From Capsulimonadaceae bacterium (GTDB taxonomy: Bacteria; Armatimonadota; Armatimonadia; Armatimonadales; Capsulimonadaceae), in contig DASXUY010000022.1 in NCBI GenBank assembly GCA_036504535.1, forward strand, positions 5,650 to 69,649: a stretch of DNA of 64,000 nt. The letters are read 5' to 3'. The first letter of the stretch is position 1. Each line of letters starts with the position of its first letter. The translations under genes and the position numbers were made by a program. Of this stretch, positions 45,967-52,775 are shown one piece after another. Under the pieces are notes generated by a model. It did not search any database. It worked only from the letters and a program-made list of their open reading frames with translations, and was not told where the DNA came from.

Positions 45967-46950
45967 TTGGCCATGATTAAGTCGTTTTTTGATGGGAATG
46001 TGCATCCTGCCTGGTATATACCCCTTTCGCGCGGCATCGTACGCGTCGCGGGCCGCGACCGCCTTGCGTTCCTGCACGGACAACTGAGCAACGATGTCCT
46101 GTCGCTTCAACCAGGCGAAGGCATTCGCGCCTGCCTGCTCAATAATACTGGCCATTTGCTCGCAGATATCATCGTCCACGCGTTCGACGGACACGTTTTC
46201 CTCGAAACAGATCCATCGCAAGCCCCTATTCTGTTGAGGGCCCTCGACAGGTTCATCATACGCGAAAAGGTGCTGCTGGAAGATGTCAGCGCGTCGTGGC
46301 AAATCGTGACGCTGCAAGGACCGGGCGCGCGCGACGCGTGGGAACGCCTAGATTCCACACCGCTGACCGTCGCCGACGGCCCACTCTACGCCCACGCCCC
46401 GCTTCCGTTCACCGCAGCCGACGGCTCCGCGCACGGCGAGATCGCTAGGCGTCCCCGAATAGGTGCGCCCGACGGATACGACCTCTGGCTGCCCGTGAGC
46501 ATTGCCGCCGAAATCATTGCCGCGCTTTCCGCGAATCCTGGTGTGGCTGAACTCGACGACTCCACCTACGAAACCCTGCGCATCGAATCCGCTGAGCCTG
46601 CCTGGGGGGCCGAACTCACCGAAGCCGTCATCCCGCTAGAAGCCGGGCTGCTGGACGCGATCAGCTTCACCAAAGGATGCTACATGGGCCAGGAAATCAT
46701 CGCCCGCATCCACTCGCGCGGCCACACAAACCGCACCCTGCGCCGCCTCACACTCGCCGCACCCGCAAACCCCGCCGACAAAATCGTCGCCGTCGGCGGC
46801 CCCAAAAACGGCGAAGAAGTCGGCTGGCTCACATCAACCGCCACATCGCCGCGCCTCGGCCCAATAGCCCTAGCCTACATCCGCAACGAATACGCCGCCG
46901 CAGGGAGCACGGTCAAGGTGAACGAGGCTGGGGCGACGGTGGATGGGTGA
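45967..46950 (+). CDS. ygfZ: YgfZ-type folate-binding protein (GcvT-like fold; Fe-S cluster repair/tRNA modification family).
   Basis: C-terminal signature KGCYMGQEIIARIHSRGHTNR (the KGCYxGQE motif). Confidence 0.8.
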   Translation: MAMIKSFFDGNVHPAWYIPLSRGIVRVAGRDRLAFLHGQLSNDVLSLQPGEGIRACLLNNTGHLLADIIVHAFDGHVFLETDPSQAPILLRALDRFIIREKVLLEDVSASWQIVTLQGPGARDAWERLDSTPLTVADGPLYAHAPLPFTAADGSAHGEIARRPRIGAPDGYDLWLPVSIAAEIIAALSANPGVAELDDSTYETLRIESAEPAWGAELTEAVIPLEAGLLDAISFTKGCYMGQEIIARIHSRGHTNRTLRRLTLAAPANPADKIVAVGGPKNGEEVGWLTSTATSPRLGPIALAYIRNEYAAAGSTVKVNEAGATVDG

Positions 46951-46965
46951 GTGCGGGGGAGGCGA

Positions 46966-47169
46966 CTACAAAGATTCGTAAGCGTTAAGGAAATCGTTGC
47001 GATCAATACCCGATTGAGTGAGGATAGTTCTCAGTGTTGAACTGCGAAGCTGGCGGTGGTTGGGGATAGTCATCGGGGTTGTGGTCCCGTCTGGGTTTCG
47101 GCGTTCGAGAGCGATGTGATTGCCCTCGCGAACAACTGTGAATCCAAGCATTCGGAGGGCTGTGAGCAC
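46966..47169 (-). CDS. hicA: HicA-family mRNA interferase toxin.
   Basis: GFTVVREGNHIALERRNPDGTTTPMTIPNH...SSTLRTILTQSGI matches the HicA pattern (GSHHxxxxxxGxxxxxPxHxxKDLKxGTLKSIxKQAGL). GTG start. Confidence 0.7.
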   Translation of the reverse strand: MLTALRMLGFTVVREGNHIALERRNPDGTTTPMTIPNHRQLRSSTLRTILTQSGIDRNDFLNAYESL

Positions 47170-47260
47170 GCGATCAATGGGAGCGTCGACGGTAGATATC
47201 GCAGTTGCGCAGTTCTGGCTTCAAAGTTAAAGTAATACCCAGTTAGGTTTTTGCTTTGAT

Positions 47261-47320
47261 GCGGGCCATCATCGCGACTTCCTAGGCGCGGAATGGGTCC
47301 AGGCTCAGCTTGGTTTGGCA
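47261..47320. repeat. REP-like element (partial copy) between hicB and hicA, immediately 3' of the hicB stop.
   Basis: atcgcgacttcctaggcgcggaatgggtccaggctcagcttggtttggca is related to 14889-14960. Confidence 0.55.
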
Positions 47321-47545
47321 TTACGCCGCGATCCTTGCCTCGGCAATGAACGCTTCCAGCACAGGTTGGTCGGCTTCAAGCACGACTCGTCCAAATGTCT
47401 CGATATGAAAATCGAGCGCAGACCTCATGTCGGCTAGCGCCTCGTCGTACGTGTCTCCTTCGCCAATCACAACCCCGGTGACACCCAGCGGGTACGCCAC
47501 ATACCCGTCGGCGTGCCTCTCTACAACGACTTTCACTTGTTCCAT
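47321..47545 (-). CDS. hicB: HicB-family antitoxin (N-terminal UPF0150 domain only).
   Basis: MEQVKVVVERHADGYVAYPLGVTGVVIGEGDTYDEALADMRSALDFHIETFG. ATG at 47543-47545 with an AGGA ribosome-binding site. The 56-aa upstream extension of the long ORF is rejected. Confidence 0.65.
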   Translation of the reverse strand: MEQVKVVVERHADGYVAYPLGVTGVVIGEGDTYDEALADMRSALDFHIETFGRVVLEADQPVLEAFIAEARIAA

Positions 47546-47703
47546 ATTCGTGATTCCTCGAACCAGCGTGACGCTGGAGCCCTGTCTCGCCGCAGACGGC
47601 TCGGTGACAGCCGGGTACAGTCCCTTGTCGCGAGCGACGCAAGCCGGAGCTTGCTCCGTGTAAGGTTTGTTGCCCAGTCGGACCAGCCTCCTGAAATTAT
47701 ACC

Positions 47704-47793
47704 ACCGCCACATCCCCGCGCCTTGGTCCCAATAGCGCTAGCATACATCCGCAACGAAGCGCCGCTGGCGTCGCAGAGCCGAGTTGCCGCCGG
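47704..47793 (+). pseudogene. Displaced duplicate of the ygfZ 3' end (fragment A).
   Basis: ccgccacatccccgcgccttggtcccaatagcgctagcatacatccgcaacgaa is ~85% identical to ygfZ 46838-46892. It encodes PIALAYIRNE... and ends with a TAG. Confidence 0.7.
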
Positions 47794-48665
47794 GTTGAAG
47801 TAGTTCACCTGATTGGTCTCCTCCCAAGCGCGGCGCTAGCCCGTCACGTCGCCGCAATTCCATCTGCTCTTTCGGGTGACCCGGCATAATCCGAAAATAC
47901 GATGTGGGTATGCGTTTTCCTCGTGAGGGATATGAAATGAGTCGATAATCGATGAAATCGTTGGATAAGAAGGCGCATAATATGTGCTTTGCGGGCAGTT
48001 ATGCGTTGTGCCGCCGTCCTGCGAGCGATGAGACGCAGAGCAAGAGCATAGGCCTGTCGAAGTTGGTTGTCAATGTGCACTCGAAGGCCCCCTTTAGGTT
48101 ATCCGCCTTCACATTAAGTATATCATTGTTATATCTAAAAGTCAACTATAGAGTTAAAAATAGTTTATTTGATCGTACATACGACCTGTTCAAATGGCCG
48201 ACGCGTGTGGTCTACGGATGCATCCGCTGAAGCGGTGCCTGTGAAAAGCAGATCGCCCTTTGGGCTAAGAGCAATCAACCCGCAGCCACCATCTCCGAAC
48301 GAACCCCACCCTGGGGACTGCCCCGCAGAAGGTGACGTCGGGCACAAGCAAGTTGCCCCGCTCGCGGCGTAGGAGCCGGCCTACCCACCGCCACCGCCCA
48401 ATCCCATCATCCCAATCGTGGCGCGTCGCCGCTGTTGGGGGGCGCCTTCGAGGAGCGGGCGCCCGAAAAGTTTGGCGCCAACCCTCGCTACAGAGCGGTG
48501 CATCCTCCGTGAGGGGCTGCCGTCGCCATGCCGCTATATGTTGTGATCCAGTCAGTTGCCCCGAAATGGACAATAGCTGAAAATTTGCTTCACGAGATCG
48601 GTAATCAATGTCGCAGGATTAATCCAATAGATAGCGAATGTTAGCATATCGAAAAGGTTGCGACG

Positions 48666-49154
48666 ATGCACAAACTAGCTGGCCTTCTATCTCTTGCCGC
48701 ACTCAGCTTCGCCGCCTGCCGTATCAACGCTATCGCCACGCGTCACGCGGCAATCGCTGCCGCGCGCGCTCACCGTCAGGCCGATCTGTGGCCCTTTGGC
48801 GCAGACAATCGGGTCACAAACGACTCACCCATTGTTCGAATTGCATATACGATCATAGTTCAAGGCGCTAAAGAAAACGCCACTGAAATCTACATTATCC
48901 CTGGCGAAACAGGCGTGCGAATCGACGTTGAAATCGAAGGTGAACGTAGTCCGATGATGCAACTCCCCAAGCACATCCAAAGGCCAATCGAATTCTGTCT
49001 GCGCTCTGGTGCCGCTCGCAGCACCGAGACCGACCCCATTGGTGGCTGCTTGTTGATCGCGCACGACGGCACCCGCTACCGCTATCGCTTAACACGGTCC
49101 ATCGGCGCGTACGGTAGCATTTTGAAGTTCACGCGGTACGAGCCAGTCGGGTGA
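48666..49154 (+). CDS. GspE/PilB N-terminal (N2) domain-only protein with an N-terminal signal/anchor; paralog 1.
   Basis: IVRIAYTIIVQGAKENATEIYIIPGETGVRIDVEIEGE...LPKHIQRPIEF...GGCLLIAHDGTRYRYRLTRSIGAYGSILKFTRYEP resembles the segment before Walker A in T2SS/T4P ATPases (ASDIHIEP...VRxRIDG...RLPQDGRI...RVSTLPxxYGExVVxRLL). There is no ATPase core. Confidence 0.6.
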   Translation: MHKLAGLLSLAALSFAACRINAIATRHAAIAAARAHRQADLWPFGADNRVTNDSPIVRIAYTIIVQGAKENATEIYIIPGETGVRIDVEIEGERSPMMQLPKHIQRPIEFCLRSGAARSTETDPIGGCLLIAHDGTRYRYRLTRSIGAYGSILKFTRYEPVG

Positions 49155-49190
49155 CGGAACAGCTTCGCCCCTCTGGCGTCGCACAATGAG

Positions 49191-49763
49191 GTGATCGCGA
49201 TGATGCAGTTTACACCCGCATATGCTGTCCTCGTTGGCCTCATCCTGGGTGCCCTTGTGGCGCGATACAAGCACCGGCAACGGGTTCGGCTTATCCTCTC
49301 CGAGCGCTTGAAGCGCAGATTGGATGAGATCCCGCGAACCGACGAAAACGGCGTGTGGCACGAAACTGGCAACTCCCCGATTCAAACGATATGCGTAACG
49401 ATTCTCATTCAATCCATACGCGAAAACGCTACTGCGATCGACCTTATCCCGCCGACGGAAGCCTATGTTGATCCCGAGGACAACTACGTCGAGCCTATCG
49501 ACCGGAAACCGGAAGCGCCGTACGGCTTGACTGTGCAATATCTGATAGATGGAGTGCCCAAGACAGTCATGGTGATGCCGTGCCACGTTGGCTGGCCCGC
49601 CGAATATACATTCATAATGGCAGCCGCGACAAGCACCGCCGCAGATCCCTGCGGTGGCGCGCTGCACATCGACTTCGAAGGCTCTCTGTACCATTTCCGC
49701 CTATCGCGCGTCGCGACGCCTTACGGCAACCACGTGACGCTCGACCGGTACGAACCCACGTGA
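49191..49763 (+). CDS. GspE/PilB N2-domain-only protein with an N-terminal transmembrane helix; paralog 2.
   Basis: IQTICVTILIQSIRENATAIDLIP...GLTVQYLIDGVPKTVMVMP...CGGALHIDFEGSLYHFRLSRVATPYGNHVTLDRYEP. Confidence 0.6.
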   Translation: MIAMMQFTPAYAVLVGLILGALVARYKHRQRVRLILSERLKRRLDEIPRTDENGVWHETGNSPIQTICVTILIQSIRENATAIDLIPPTEAYVDPEDNYVEPIDRKPEAPYGLTVQYLIDGVPKTVMVMPCHVGWPAEYTFIMAAATSTAADPCGGALHIDFEGSLYHFRLSRVATPYGNHVTLDRYEPT

Positions 49764-49921
49764 GATCGCTATCGGTACGTCCGTCACAGTGGCGGCAAGA
49801 TTGGTGCATTTGTTTGTAAATAGATATCGTAGTAGTCGCTCTGAGTGATGCAGTATAACCATAAATGACATTTCTCGCTCTGGCAACGTGCACCCGCGCC
49901 TCATAACACCGCGACGCCCAC

Positions 49922-50047
49922 CAGGGCCGCCGCCGCCTCGCTCTGACCGCGCTCGCAAACCCCGCCGACTAAATCGTCGCCGTCGTAGACCCGAATGGCG
50001 CGAAGAAATCGGCTGGCTGACGTCCACCGCCCAATCCCCTCGCGCTT
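49922..50047 (+). pseudogene. Degenerate duplicate of an internal 3' portion of ygfZ (fragment B).
   Basis: gccgcctcgctctgaccgcgctcgcaaaccccgccgactaaatcgtcgccgtcg...gaagaaatcggctggctgacgtccaccgcc aligns with ygfZ 46742-46845 and carries in-frame stops. Confidence 0.65.
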
Positions 50048-50285
50048 AGTCGCCGGGCTCTCATCGGCCTTTGGCGCTGGGCACAATTCACATGCGATAC
50101 AAGGCAAGTCCTTATCTTAGGGGGCTGGGCTTGAGCCTGTCCGCTGGCCAGGTACGGTCTTGCCCTTGGCACCCTATTGACTAGCTTAACCAAGTCTGAG
50201 CCCACGTCTATCCGGACCTCAGTAAACACTTCTTCGCTGCAGGACTTCTGCAATGACTGGCGAATATGTGCATATCAGAGAGATT

Positions 50286-50771
50286 CCGATAATGAATAAA
50301 CTAGCCGCCTCTTTATCCCTCACTGCACTCGCCTTTGCCGCAAGCCGCATCAACGCCATCCTCAAGCATCGCGCGGCAATTGCTGCCTCGCGTGCGAGCC
50401 GGCAAGCTGATCTCTGGCGCGGTGACGGCTCCATGGACTTCGCTGACGATTCGCCGCTTGTCCAGATCACGTTTATCATCATTGGGAAGGCTATGGCCGA
50501 GGACGCCTCCGAAATCTACCTCGTACCCGACAAGACCCACATCCGTGTCGATTACAAAATCCACGGTGAGCGCTGCGAGGTCATGAAAATTCCGAAGCAC
50601 TACCAGCGCCCCATCGAGTTCTGCTTTCGTGCCGCCGCAGCCGTAAGCACTGACATCAATCCGCTGGGCGGAGACCTCTCCGTCGTGCGGCGTGGCGTCC
50701 GGCAAAGATTTCACCTGCGCCGAGTTGTCGGTTCCGACGGCAGCGAGTTGACGTTCACTCGGTATGAATAA
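50286..50771 (+). CDS. GspE/PilB N2-domain-only protein; paralog 3.
   Basis: MNKLAASLSLTALAFAASRINAILKHRAAIAASRASRQADLW...LVQITFIIIGKAMAEDASEIYLVPDKTHIRVDYKIHGE...IPKHYQRPIEF...LTFTRYE. Confidence 0.6.
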   Translation, partial: PIMNKLAASLSLTALAFAASRINAILKHRAAIAASRASRQADLWRGDGSMDFADDSPLVQITFIIIGKAMAEDASEIYLVPDKTHIRVDYKIHGERCEVMKIPKHYQRPIEFCFRAAAAVSTDINPLGGDLSVVRRGVRQRFHLRRVVGSDGSELTFTRYE

Positions 50772-50816
50772 GCCACAATAGAAACCATCGAGATTATACG
50801 AAAGGCATCGTCCAAC

Positions 50817-52016
50817 ATGCTAAAGGCCTTAGCTCTCACTCTCACATCGTTGGTGAGCCTTGGCGGCGTGACAGCCGCGACGCCAATCGCGACGATGAAG
50901 GTTGCGAGAATTTCCGTTTTTGAATCTGGTTACGGCTGGGCACTGGGCCGTCAAAGAGATCGACTTGCGGTGTTGCGGATTCAGGAGCGTCACGATATCG
51001 CACAAATTGTAAGCACGCAAACTTGGGCCACTTCTTCGGCCTGTGAATGCGATAACTACGAGGACGTCGGAACCGCATTTGTTACGTCACGACTTGCCTT
51101 TGTCGCTTTGTTTAGCGCCGTAAACGAATTATCGATAAAGCGTACCGACAATGGCGGCGGAAGTTGGACTTCGGCGAAATTCGTGGTTCCTGACAGTATG
51201 GAGGAGGGGACAATCCTGCTCACTTTCGCCGATAGCCTACACGGGTACTTGTTGCTGTCGTCACCCCACCGAGGCTTTCACGGCCAACTTGCTCTCTATA
51301 CCACCGCAGACTCGGGGCGATCATGGAGCCGAAAAGCAAGCTCTAGTGACGTAACTGCGGGCCTGCCAACGCAGGGCAGGCCCAAAACCATATCGTTCAT
51401 TTCCCCCCGCGAAGGCTGGATTGGCATGGACCTCGGGGGAATATCCCCCAAATCACTTCTGCATACGACCGATGGGGGCTCGCATTGGACAGGAATAAAT
51501 GTAGATAACTTTCAGGATATCCATCCTCAGCGCTACACAATCCCGGTCTTAATCCGTCCGTTTCATAAAGGAGGAGCGAAGGCCATTCTGTTCTTCAAAG
51601 TGATGGGAGACTCGCGTAACAAATGCGTCGTCTACCTCCTCAAAGGAACCCCGTCGCATCCGATTTATACAAAATCAGGCGAGGTGACCGTCAATTCGAG
51701 TGGCAGTGACCTTGCTATAGCGTCGTTCGGCGCATCATTGTATTTTGTCGATCCCAGCAAAAAGGAGCTGTACGTAGGAAGTTCCGTCGGTGCCAAATGG
51801 CGCTCCGTTCGTTATTCCGCCCCTTTAGGCGGCGAATACGACACTGCCTGGCTCTATGCTGGGCAGTCACATGTCCTCTACTTCGTACAGGCAGTTGATG
51901 GGGCGCAAGGCGTGGCCAGGACAACGACTTTGTTAAGATCAGGTAATGACGGAAAAACGTGGCAACGGCTCAGCTTACGCCAACCTCCCGACAAAGTCCG
52001 TCAAAGACACCGATAG
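50817..52016 (+). CDS. Secreted BNR/Asp-box repeat beta-propeller protein (Ycf48/sialidase-like fold).
   Basis: Signal peptide MLKALALTLTSLVSLGGVTAA. Asp-box repeats TDNGGGSWTS, TADSGRSWS, TTDGGSHWT, GNDGKTWQRL. Confidence 0.6.
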   Translation: MLKALALTLTSLVSLGGVTAATPIATMKVARISVFESGYGWALGRQRDRLAVLRIQERHDIAQIVSTQTWATSSACECDNYEDVGTAFVTSRLAFVALFSAVNELSIKRTDNGGGSWTSAKFVVPDSMEEGTILLTFADSLHGYLLLSSPHRGFHGQLALYTTADSGRSWSRKASSSDVTAGLPTQGRPKTISFISPREGWIGMDLGGISPKSLLHTTDGGSHWTGINVDNFQDIHPQRYTIPVLIRPFHKGGAKAILFFKVMGDSRNKCVVYLLKGTPSHPIYTKSGEVTVNSSGSDLAIASFGASLYFVDPSKKELYVGSSVGAKWRSVRYSAPLGGEYDTAWLYAGQSHVLYFVQAVDGAQGVARTTTLLRSGNDGKTWQRLSLRQPPDKVRQRHR

Positions 52017-52516
52017 CGCTTCCACCGGGATTCGCCAGTTGGTGCGCTAAGCCCGCCCAAACCTCACTGCAAATGTCGACCAACCCGCATTCCATATAAT
52101 AGGATGTGATTCTATTACGATGATTGCTGGAACTGGCCAAAGCCTCTTTGATCATTCAATGAAATGTGACTTGCCGTCCAATGTCGCTGATTACGAACGT
52201 GTGTAATTATAAAATAGCTTAACAGAAATAGATATTGTCAAATTAAAATGTTTTGGGTATAATATCATCAAGGCGATAATCCCAAAGAGGCCGCCCCATT
52301 GCGTTCCGACGCATCTGCACCTTAAAAATCGAAATCGCCTATCGTCGCCGAGCAAAAACTGTAGCGCTGCACACAATAATATCCATGAATATTGCGATTC
52401 CAAAATGCCAAAATATTCACAACTCGCCACTGCCAACTCCGTCCGCCAACGTGGTTGGAAATCATAAACCCCACGCGTGGGGTGGCGTGGTACGCGCCGG
52501 GGTAATCCGGCCACAA

Positions 52517-52551
52517 TTTTGCGCAAAAAATAGAATCGCGTTGCGCAACGC
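52517..52551. promoter_or_regulatory. Two TTGCGCAA-core perfect palindromes 22 bp apart; a candidate operator in the AT-rich region upstream of the GT2 gene.
   Basis: TTTTGCGCAAAA (52517-52528) and GCGTTGCGCAACGC (52538-52551), followed by cgcaaaacgcgcaaaac direct repeats. Confidence 0.45.
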
Positions 52552-52644
52552 AAAACGCGCAAAACAATACCGAATATTGGTCGCCCTCCGCACGCCAACG
52601 CGGTCGGTGACCTCGCTTCTGAGCGCAACATCATAGTCCCTAAT

Positions 52645-52775
52645 CACTTGGGGACAGCGAGCCGAACGAGCAGGGGTAATCCGTCCTCAACCCACCCGGC
52701 CTCGCCAAGAAGTGGTCGGACAACACCGTCCCCACTCGTGGGGACAGCTCGCCCGAGCGAGCAGGGGGTACCCTA
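52645..52775 (+). repeat. Tandem ~40-bp direct repeats in the 5' leader of the GT2 gene; a third related copy at 52472-52510.
   Basis: cacttggggacagcgagccgaacgagcaggggtaatccg (52645-52683) and cactcgtggggacagctcgcccgagcgagcagggggtaccc (52733-52774). Distal copy: cacgcgtggggtggcgtggtacgcgccggggtaatccgg. Confidence 0.55.

Follow-up and report, generated by a model that had tools for sequence, protein, structure and literature searches.

What kind of process leaves several partial copies of a conserved gene's 3' end lined up directly downstream of the intact gene? This question is raised by ygfZ in a metagenomic contig of a Capsulimonadaceae bacterium (Armatimonadota; GenBank assembly GCA_036504535.1, contig DASXUY010000022.1). 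We analysed 64,000 nucleotides (nt) of this contig, referred to below as the window; positions are counted from its first letter. In the window, ygfZ is followed by three truncated copies of its own 3' part, interspersed with a predicted hicBA toxin-antitoxin module and three small paralogous genes. An earlier note, made by reading the letters alone, had described the locus as an insertion hotspot. As the best reading we tentatively propose serial insertion at one site in the 3' end of ygfZ.

Partial copies of ygfZ and their common core

The features needed for the argument are as follows.

45973 to 46950, + strand: intact ygfZ, COG0354 folate-binding protein, 325 amino acids (aa); Pfam GCV_T 1.2e-25 and GCV_T_C 7.5e-9
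46837 to 46854, + strand: core 1, ygfZ codons 289-294, ACCGCCACATCGCCGCGC; shared segment at which copy A starts and copies B and C break off
46855 to 46950, + strand: right arm R, the present 3' end of ygfZ; its C-terminus is canonical in comparison with relatives
47704 to 47803, + strand: copy A, core 2 (47704-47721) and right arm R'; significant homology extends to 47765
48352 to 48408, + strand: copy C, a degenerate left-arm remnant and core 3 (48391-48406, CCACCGCCCAATCCCA); missed in the earlier note
49931 to 50047, + strand: copy B, left arm L' (matching ygfZ 46741-46836, 96 nt) and core 4 (50024-50039)

The intact gene is a typical member of its family. The annotated start is the ATG at 45973. 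The product has both the GCV_T and GCV_T_C domains, and its motif KGCYMGQE, invariant in our alignment, agrees with KGCYxGQE, which we take to be the signature of the YgfZ / COG0354 family. The full-length C-terminus aligns to its end with those of 10 relatives, the best of which is 58% identical. The gene is preceded by the divergently oriented pntAB, as in the relative L007.

The whole window was searched with ygfZ by blastn. There are exactly two significant extra matches, both on the + strand; the remaining ones are at most 16 nt long, with E of at least 0.2. Copy A (47704-47765) corresponds to ygfZ 46837-46898 with 56 of 63 positions identical (89%, E 1e-15), and copy B (49931-50043) corresponds to ygfZ 46741-46854 with 91 of 114 (80%, E 1e-22). 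Thus the two displaced copies of the ygfZ C-terminal coding sequence reported in the earlier note are there, and their similarity to ygfZ holds on careful alignment. Their limits had to be corrected. The proposed start of copy A (47704) stands, but the stop codon that closes it lies at 47801-47803 rather than at 47793. The stops and indels ascribed to copy B are found, but this copy begins at 49931 and not at 49922.

Copy A consists of a core and a right arm only: nothing left of 47702 resembles ygfZ. Over the 18 codons that follow the core, every difference between arm R and copy A is a synonymous third-position substitution (ygfZ/copy A: TCG/TCC, CTC/CTT, GCC/GCG, GCC/GCA; the pair GGC/GGT depends on the placement of a 1-nt insertion). 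Then the frame is lost. The decayed reading frame, which contains this 1-nt insertion relative to ygfZ, ends at the TAG at 47801-47803, and its tail past about 47765 has no significant similarity to ygfZ. As the changes are only synonymous, copy A diverged under coding constraint, in another lineage or allele, before its displacement. A dead duplicate would not be expected to diverge so; the pattern is that of two functional alleles, one of which was later displaced. We read copy A as the displaced former 3' end of ygfZ.

Copy B has the opposite anatomy, a left arm and a core with no right arm. It contains in-frame TAA and TAG stops and indels, and no homology to ygfZ was found left of 49931 or right of 50047. 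Its substitutions at codon positions 1/2/3 number 6/5/12, i.e., allelic divergence is mixed with decay. Copy C was found by repeat finding and pattern scans. Its core CCACCGCCCAATCCC at 48391-48405 matches the core of copy B in 15 of 15 nt; among 5000 simulated sequences a single one contained a match this long (P about 2e-4), and other places in the window match over 10-11 nt at most. A 57-nt local alignment of copy C with copy B was equalled by 2 of 300 shuffles. No homology was found to the right of copy C.

The cores of ygfZ and copy A read CACAT where those of copies B and C both have the derived state CCAAT. Copy B lies 253 nt upstream of the ATG of paralog 3, and copy C lies 260 nt upstream of the ATG of paralog 1; the last approximately 55 nt before these two ATGs are conserved, and the leader between the core and this stretch is not alignable. 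Copies B and C are therefore sister copies within colinear units of core, leader, and paralog. As sisters at colinear spacing they may go back to one event followed by a duplication of the unit, not to separate insertions.

The alignment of the fragments, suggested in the earlier note as a way to define an attachment (att) core, gave a common core ACCGCCMMATCSCC in ygfZ and all three copies, always on the + strand. With at most one mismatch it occurs at 46837, 47704, 48393, and 50026, i.e., four times within 3.2 kb. The whole window contains six matches against 0.29 expected, and the remaining two are isolated sites elsewhere. Copy A starts at ygfZ 46837 and copies B and C break off at 46854-46858, so that the breakpoints all fall within 18-22 nt. 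The segment made up of the right arm and hicBA has the same core at both of its ends, ACCGCCACATCGCC at 46837 and ACCGCCACATCCCC at 47704. Segments between the cores measure 0.69-1.6 kb, and no recombination genes lie between the four direct cores. Chance similarity and an artefact were rejected on the basis of the E-values, the shuffles, and independent assemblies.

Two highly significant fragments and a third one with a significant core, all in direct orientation, speak for serial insertion. Further points in its favour, detailed here and below, are the common breakpoint, the allele-like divergence of copy A, the mobility of hicBA, the lack of the islet in relatives, the lower GC3 of the islet genes, and the existence of a documented class of tandem integrase-less elements at gene 3' ends. 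If it took place, the region from 46951 to approximately 52.7 kb would be a lineage-specific islet built stepwise at one short site, ygfZ codons 289-294, and each event would have joined incoming DNA at the core, leaving a partial copy of ygfZ. The latest event would have brought hicBA together with a replacement 3' end of ygfZ (46855-46950); the previous 3' end would have been pushed downstream, where it decayed to copy A. Older events would have attached the paralog-bearing segments, with copies C and B, approximately 255 nt upstream of paralogs 1 and 3, as their scars. The elements would now be integrase-less remnants accreted in tandem. From this layout we infer a site-specific recombinase that acted on the core and made the joints, a common arrival of right arm R and hicBA, and the order of the events.

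The islet and its counterparts in relatives

The other features of the region are listed below.

46966 to 47169, - strand: hicA toxin gene, 67 aa; Pfam HicA_toxin PF07927, 8.3e-10, 54 of 58 profile positions, above the gathering score
47321 to 47545, - strand: hicB antitoxin gene, 74 aa; recognised by homology, no Pfam or NCBIfam match
47804 to 48351, no strand: spacer with an AT-rich tract (GC 47.5% at 47800-48199); hypothetical open reading frames (ORFs) only, no Pfam, NCBIfam, or Rfam match
48666 to 49154, + strand: paralog 1, 162 aa, N-terminal hydrophobic helix and predicted PilB/GspE N2 domain, no ATPase domain
49191 to 49763, + strand: paralog 2, 190 aa with the GTG start, 187 aa if the ATG at 49200 is used; 37 nt past paralog 1
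50292 to 50771, + strand: paralog 3; its ORF opens at 50253, and the ATG at 50292 gives 159 aa, the length of the protein called by NCBI
50817 to 52016, + strand: BNR/Ycf48-like beta-propeller gene, GC content at third codon positions (GC3) 0.56; Pfam PSII_BNR 1.7e-7
52017 to 52711, no strand: AT-rich stretch, GC 49%, containing short direct repeats; no significant family match for its ORFs

The gene order is as the earlier note described it: ygfZ is followed by hicA and hicB, then by copy A, paralogs 1 and 2, copy B, and finally paralog 3. The end of hicA is 15 nt after the ygfZ stop codon. A HicA domain and an adjacent HicB-family protein mark the pair as a predicted type II toxin-antitoxin system. 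For HicB 4778 homologues were found; thousands have the same length (74 aa) and are 70-85% identical to it, and several are named HicB family by JGI or NCBI. In particular, at the locus L014 a protein encoded just ahead of a Pfam HicA gene is 83% identical to HicB, and the Pfam-annotated HicA of L014 shares 69% amino acid identity with HicA of the window. The JGI annotation has no hicA call, and the spacer between hicB and hicA is 151 nt here versus 48 nt in the L014 pair.

The closest HicB homologues (82-85%) are found in contexts unrelated to ygfZ. Such an identity of up to 85% in unrelated contexts, compared with 58% for YgfZ, marks hicBA as clearly horizontally mobile relative to its host. 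The closest homologue of all (85%; L010 5526-6435, JGI 3300032722) is encoded a few kb from a diversity-generating retroelement (DGR), represented by bAvd and a reverse transcriptase, and from a NACHT/FGE-sulfatase protein.

The three paralogs are pairwise 35-53% identical. Their coding DNA is 62% identical, and paralogs 1 and 3 are homologous in DNA from 53 nt ahead of their ATGs onward. When 5.8 billion proteins were searched by word index, no homologues came up outside this genome, and no relatives were found in metagenome and viral contigs. A profile search produced 798 matches, the closest of them outside this genome with E 2.6e-16. Profile matches scanned with Pfam (eight large plus small standalone proteins) align to PF00437 from its N-terminal end; paralog 3 itself has weak GspE/PilB NCBIfam matches. 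The AlphaFold2 model of paralog 1 (pLDDT 72.6) has PilB (5zfr) as its top Foldseek match, E 4.8e-7, and superposes on the N2 domains of PilB, PilF, and EpsE with E from 5e-7 to 1e-5. The C-terminal RecA-like ATPase domain with Walker A and B motifs is absent, as the paralogs stop at 159-190 aa, straight after the N2 domain. Lacking Walker motifs, they are therefore not ATPases. The paralogs are thus orphans in sequence but have a known fold, predicted as an N2 domain behind a hydrophobic N-terminal helix; the earlier note had called the three genes novel, which for the fold does not hold. A duplication of fragment, spacer, and paralog along with ygfZ was considered and rejected, as the homology starts 53 nt before the ATG and the identities (62% vs 80-89%) point to different ages.

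In each paralog it is the region of residues approximately 45-160 that aligns with the N-terminal part of PF00437 and superposes on the N2 domains of PilB, PilF, and EpsE; other small proteins of 110-200 aa exist that consist of this domain alone. The paralogs differ from some of the others at the N-terminus, which is hydrophobic and signal-like here and of the anti-sigma zf-HC2 type there. Three standalone N2 proteins of 165-176 aa (P0133, P0138, and P0139) start with a Cys/His-rich segment of the zf-HC2 type, which Pfam confirms for P0133; judging by this architecture, N2 domains that stand alone may serve as regulatory modules. The hydrophobic N-terminus of paralog 1 (48666-48720) closes with LSFAAC, which is similar to a lipoprotein box, and paralog 3 has serine in place of the cysteine. 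Export or lipidation of the paralogs is uncertain.

The low-GC stretch from 46951 to approximately 52711 is mildly deviant and longer than the region delimited in the earlier note. GC3 of the islet genes is 0.56-0.69 versus 0.65-0.83 for the flanking genes. The AT-rich tract near 48 kb had been taken as support for foreign origin, of which it is weak evidence on its own. The beta-propeller gene was not found downstream of ygfZ in relatives and possibly belongs to the same lineage-specific stretch, and the AT-rich stretch 52017-52711 is likely the right edge of the low-GC islet. In this gene-poor stretch, at 52437-52690, there are two pairs of short direct repeats, 22 nt and 25 nt long, with an identity of 82-84% and a spacing of 149-174 nt. 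No noncoding RNA was detected in the islet with Rfam, where the sole reported entry has E 0.5; the weak Chlorobi-1 match at 52463-52512 is far below the threshold. Elsewhere in the window, at approximately 35.7-37.8 kb (L001 153-1815), tandem zinc-ribbon genes (129-135 aa) contain a 463-nt direct DNA repeat with 88.6% identity, which is another recent local duplication.

The region downstream of ygfZ was compared across relatives, a check that the earlier note had proposed. In a Capsulimonadaceae metagenome-assembled genome (MAG; L007-L009) the gene order is pntBA-ygfZ-SpoIIM-RDD-M16. The locus L005 has the same downstream genes (SpoIIM-RDD-M16) but a defence-like island upstream of ygfZ. This island takes the place of pntAB (L005 1-7833; Logan SRR29681755_14138, with the closest YgfZ, 58%) and encodes a restriction endonuclease/helicase, an N6 methyltransferase, a TIR-domain protein, and an SNF2 helicase. 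At L006 8951-12788 (ENA ERZ12298643 scaffold_18_c1; YgfZ 53%) seven tandem paralogs of a small multi-pass membrane protein follow right after ygfZ; they are 160-211 aa long, all end in EG(A/V/L)WPPP, have no Pfam match, and are unrelated to the paralogs of the window.

No copies of the ygfZ 3' end were found in these relatives, including between the L006 paralogs, and the window has no homologues of SpoIIM, RDD, or M16. Since the relatives have neither the islet genes nor the fragments, the islet is lineage-specific, and the flanks of ygfZ are variable in this family. Among 85 further, more distant ygfZ loci, none has a comparable direct downstream copy of a 3' fragment; six of them gave any match at all, namely short inverted repeats or weak matches with 72-82% identity. 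Thus the fragment copies are not a general property of ygfZ.

Proposed serial insertion and its alternatives

The earlier note stated that no integrase is present, and none was found in the window or in the adjoining 9 kb on its right side. Among the ORFs of the islet, including the minor ones, Pfam and NCBIfam recognised no recombination family, and no pseudogene remnants of a recombinase were recognised, as the ORFs in 47.5-48.6, 49.7-50.3, and 52.2-52.6 kb gave no significant Pfam match. A codon-degenerate ygfZ pattern had 0 matches in metagenome contigs, in a collection that lacks even the source contig.

A number of findings weigh against serial insertion. No integrase, recombinase, or transposase families were detected among the window ORFs and the JGI and Logan gene calls from position 1 to approximately 9 kb past the right end (approximately 73 kb). 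Plasmid and phage collections contain no similar DNA, and viral contigs do not contain the core pattern ACCGCCMMATCSCC. An attP-like copy, a second occupied site, or a related cassette was found neither in plasmids and phages nor in viral and metagenome contigs. The core has none of the dyad symmetry that is typical of tyrosine-recombinase sites, and a repeat scan showed no inverted repeat there. An integration that regenerates the 3' end should leave a core with a right arm, which is the anatomy of copy A alone; copies B and C have no right arm, and copy B is not continued by an ancestral 3' end. Accordingly, the site-specific insertion suggested in the earlier note fits copy A with hicBA well, and it does not predict the left arm plus core of copies B and C. 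As sister copies in colinear units of fragment, leader, and paralog, B and C may leave only two independent breakpoints, and the coincidence of two breakpoints within approximately 20 nt has by our estimate a chance probability of roughly 0.04-0.18. Finally, the closest genomes compared are of genus-level or more distant relationship and thus offer no near-relative site for comparison.

The main alternative, which we consider rather unlikely, is homology-facilitated illegitimate recombination with DNA of a related lineage, without any dedicated mobile element. A homologous anchor in pntAB or ygfZ would be combined with an illegitimate joint at the other end: a donor ygfZ-hicBA would replace the resident one and leave the old end as copy A, and copies B and C would stem from one earlier joint of a truncated ygfZ to a leader-paralog unit, later duplicated in tandem. 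Donor and recipient alleles explain the synonymous divergence of arm R and copy A equally well; the derived core of B and C, together with their colinear position ahead of paralogs 3 and 1, suggests a single unit that was duplicated; and this explanation has no need of an integrase, an attP, or a second locus, none of which was found in the searched collections, or of recombinase-like symmetry in the core. The flanks of ygfZ also vary on both sides in Capsulimonadaceae-like relatives, as they would at a general hotspot of recombination or rearrangement. Yet two independent joints would have to fall by chance within the same 18-22 nt of ygfZ. Moreover, the core of B and C is kept in 15 of 15 nt next to a leader that is no longer alignable, which suggests a constraint on the core or its recent formation and would here likewise have to be chance, and the left-arm remnants are still recognisable although the paralog coding DNA is only 62% identical. 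A purely internal segmental duplication of the ygfZ 3' region and the downstream genes, followed by deletion and decay and involving no foreign DNA, appears improbable. The three tandem paralogs do show that duplication operates at the locus, and the fragments stand in direct orientation near their parent gene. However, all-synonymous changes in copy A are unexpected for a neutrally decaying, non-functional duplicate, HicB has relatives of 85% identity in unrelated organisms compared with 58% for YgfZ, and the islet genes have a lower GC3 than their neighbours. The fragments (80-89%) are also far less diverged than the paralog coding DNA, which is under selection (62%), so they were not created together.

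Similarly improbable is the suggestion that the four cores are live recombination sites, served by a recombinase elsewhere in the genome or on a helper element, and that integrase-less cassettes were inserted in trans into a 16-18-nt site of ygfZ. The cassettes would then be hicBA, the AT-rich segment, and secreted or membrane-anchored PilB-N2 proteins; the latter might act as decoys against the ATPases of type IV pili or type II secretion. Such an array would be functionally similar to an integron or an array of cis-mobilisable elements (CIMEs), but with its site anchored in a housekeeping gene of Armatimonadota. The earlier note had spoken of a hotspot and of cassettes mobilised in trans; with no second locus, attP-like copy, or recombinase in the searched collections this is a conjecture. 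We give hardly any credence to the copies being functional, either as silent donors of gene conversion or as a DGR template that diversifies the YgfZ C-terminus. Partial 3' copies downstream of a gene in the same orientation superficially resemble the pilE/pilS or the template repeat/variable repeat layout, but no reverse transcriptase or Avd was found in the gene calls of the window and its flank, and the mismatches are not confined to adenines: all four bases are affected, by 10 transitions and 13 transversions. This mismatch pattern and the absence of a reverse transcriptase effectively refute a DGR or any other functional copying; the copies also contain stops and frameshifts, and YgfZ is a conserved cytoplasmic housekeeping protein whose copied segment is conserved across relatives. 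An artefact, i.e., a chimeric metagenome assembly or chance similarity in GC-rich DNA, is very improbable as well. The contig is metagenomic, and the Logan assembly breaks at 48230-48248 and 52415-52741; against this stand the E-values of 1e-15 and 1e-22. The Logan contigs of SRR11794808 match the window with 100% identity across each fragment, and hicB and the three paralogs also occur together on one NCBI MAG contig, where their locus tags run consecutively from VGK19_05200 to VGK19_05215; therefore, the layout downstream of ygfZ is real and not an assembly artefact. The copies are only 80-89% identical to ygfZ and thus are not collapsed repeats.

Some details of the source data can be added. 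NCBI names the proteins with these locus tags ‘MAG TPA: Capsulimonadaceae bacterium’ (Armatimonadota), and the window forms part of the 220.7-kb JGI contig Ga0376481_000111 (metagenome 3300035523), on which the exact YgfZ protein is encoded. Both interruptions of the Logan assembly of SRR11794808 are located in or beside the AT-rich stretches of the islet, and may reflect low coverage or strain heterogeneity at those spots.

Known systems and the meaning of the locus

The closest precedent for copy A is the insertion of e14 or phage 21 into the 3' end of icd in E. coli, which brings a replacement 3' end and leaves a displaced icdC with mainly synonymous differences (PMC13626634). Likewise, in the window a displaced 3' end lies downstream of ygfZ in direct orientation, the two ends differ synonymously as alleles do, and the core is found at both ends of the segment. 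In contrast to e14, which is a prophage of 15 kb, encodes its own integrase, and displaced one fragment only, the segment inserted here is 0.87 kb long and carries only hicBA, and there are two extra fragments of left arm plus core. No integrase was found in the islet, the window, or 9 kb past its right end.

The tandem arrangement is closer to that of CIMEs. In streptococci these are tandem integrase-less elements of 1.2-13 kb (microCIMEs, 130-220 bp) with att repeats at the 3' ends of fda, rpsI, rpmG, and rplL (PMC7563491). The islet shares with them the lack of an integrase, decay, a tandem arrangement with cargo genes beside the 3' end of a conserved gene, a comparable size, and direct att-like repeats with no recombination or transfer genes between them. 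CIMEs are recognised through related integrative and conjugative or integrative and mobilisable elements that have a cognate integrase at the same att site, whereas no such element was found here in plasmids, phages, viral or metagenome contigs, or the 85 other ygfZ loci, a search that did not extend to the rest of the source genome. Furthermore, the streptococcal att repeats contain the 3' end of the gene, while copies B and C extend from the core in the upstream direction only; ygfZ as the target and Armatimonadota as the phylum are further differences. The locus thus does not demonstrably qualify for either the icd/e14 or the CIME class on the defining recombinase feature.

Integron cassette arrays, clusters of attC sites lacking integron-integrases (CALINs), and pdif/Xer modules consist of units of approximately 0.5-2 kb, often with toxin-antitoxin or unknown small genes, separated by short recombination sites, and their recombinase can be encoded elsewhere. 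The islet resembles them as an array of small modules with short repeated sites in between. Its cores, however, are direct repeats derived from coding sequence, with no hairpin or dyad and no dif-like AT-rich spacer. No IntI-like ORF was found, and a repeat scan, made with no attC covariance model, showed no attC-like inverted repeats at the cores. Integron attC and dif/Xer sites were rejected as candidates, as no IntI was found and the cores have no dyad symmetry.

What we see at ygfZ looks like gene-end insertion scars of a familiar kind at a target gene that we have not found reported; our literature search found no paper that names ygfZ together with attB. The current understanding is not overturned, as partial copies at gene ends beside inserted DNA and integrase-less remnants are well known. 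The paralogs raise a side question, namely what role standalone N2 domains with a hydrophobic N-terminus have and why they occur in a variable islet. The 16-18-nt motif gives concrete predictions of junctions for the reads of one public sample. If serial insertion is the true explanation, ygfZ would add a new protein-coding gene to the known attachment targets and would be the first such target described from Armatimonadota, a poorly studied phylum. The locus would also be a compact case of accretion at an att site, whose whole history, from allele-like ends and sister scars to a toxin-antitoxin cassette, could be read within 3 kb.

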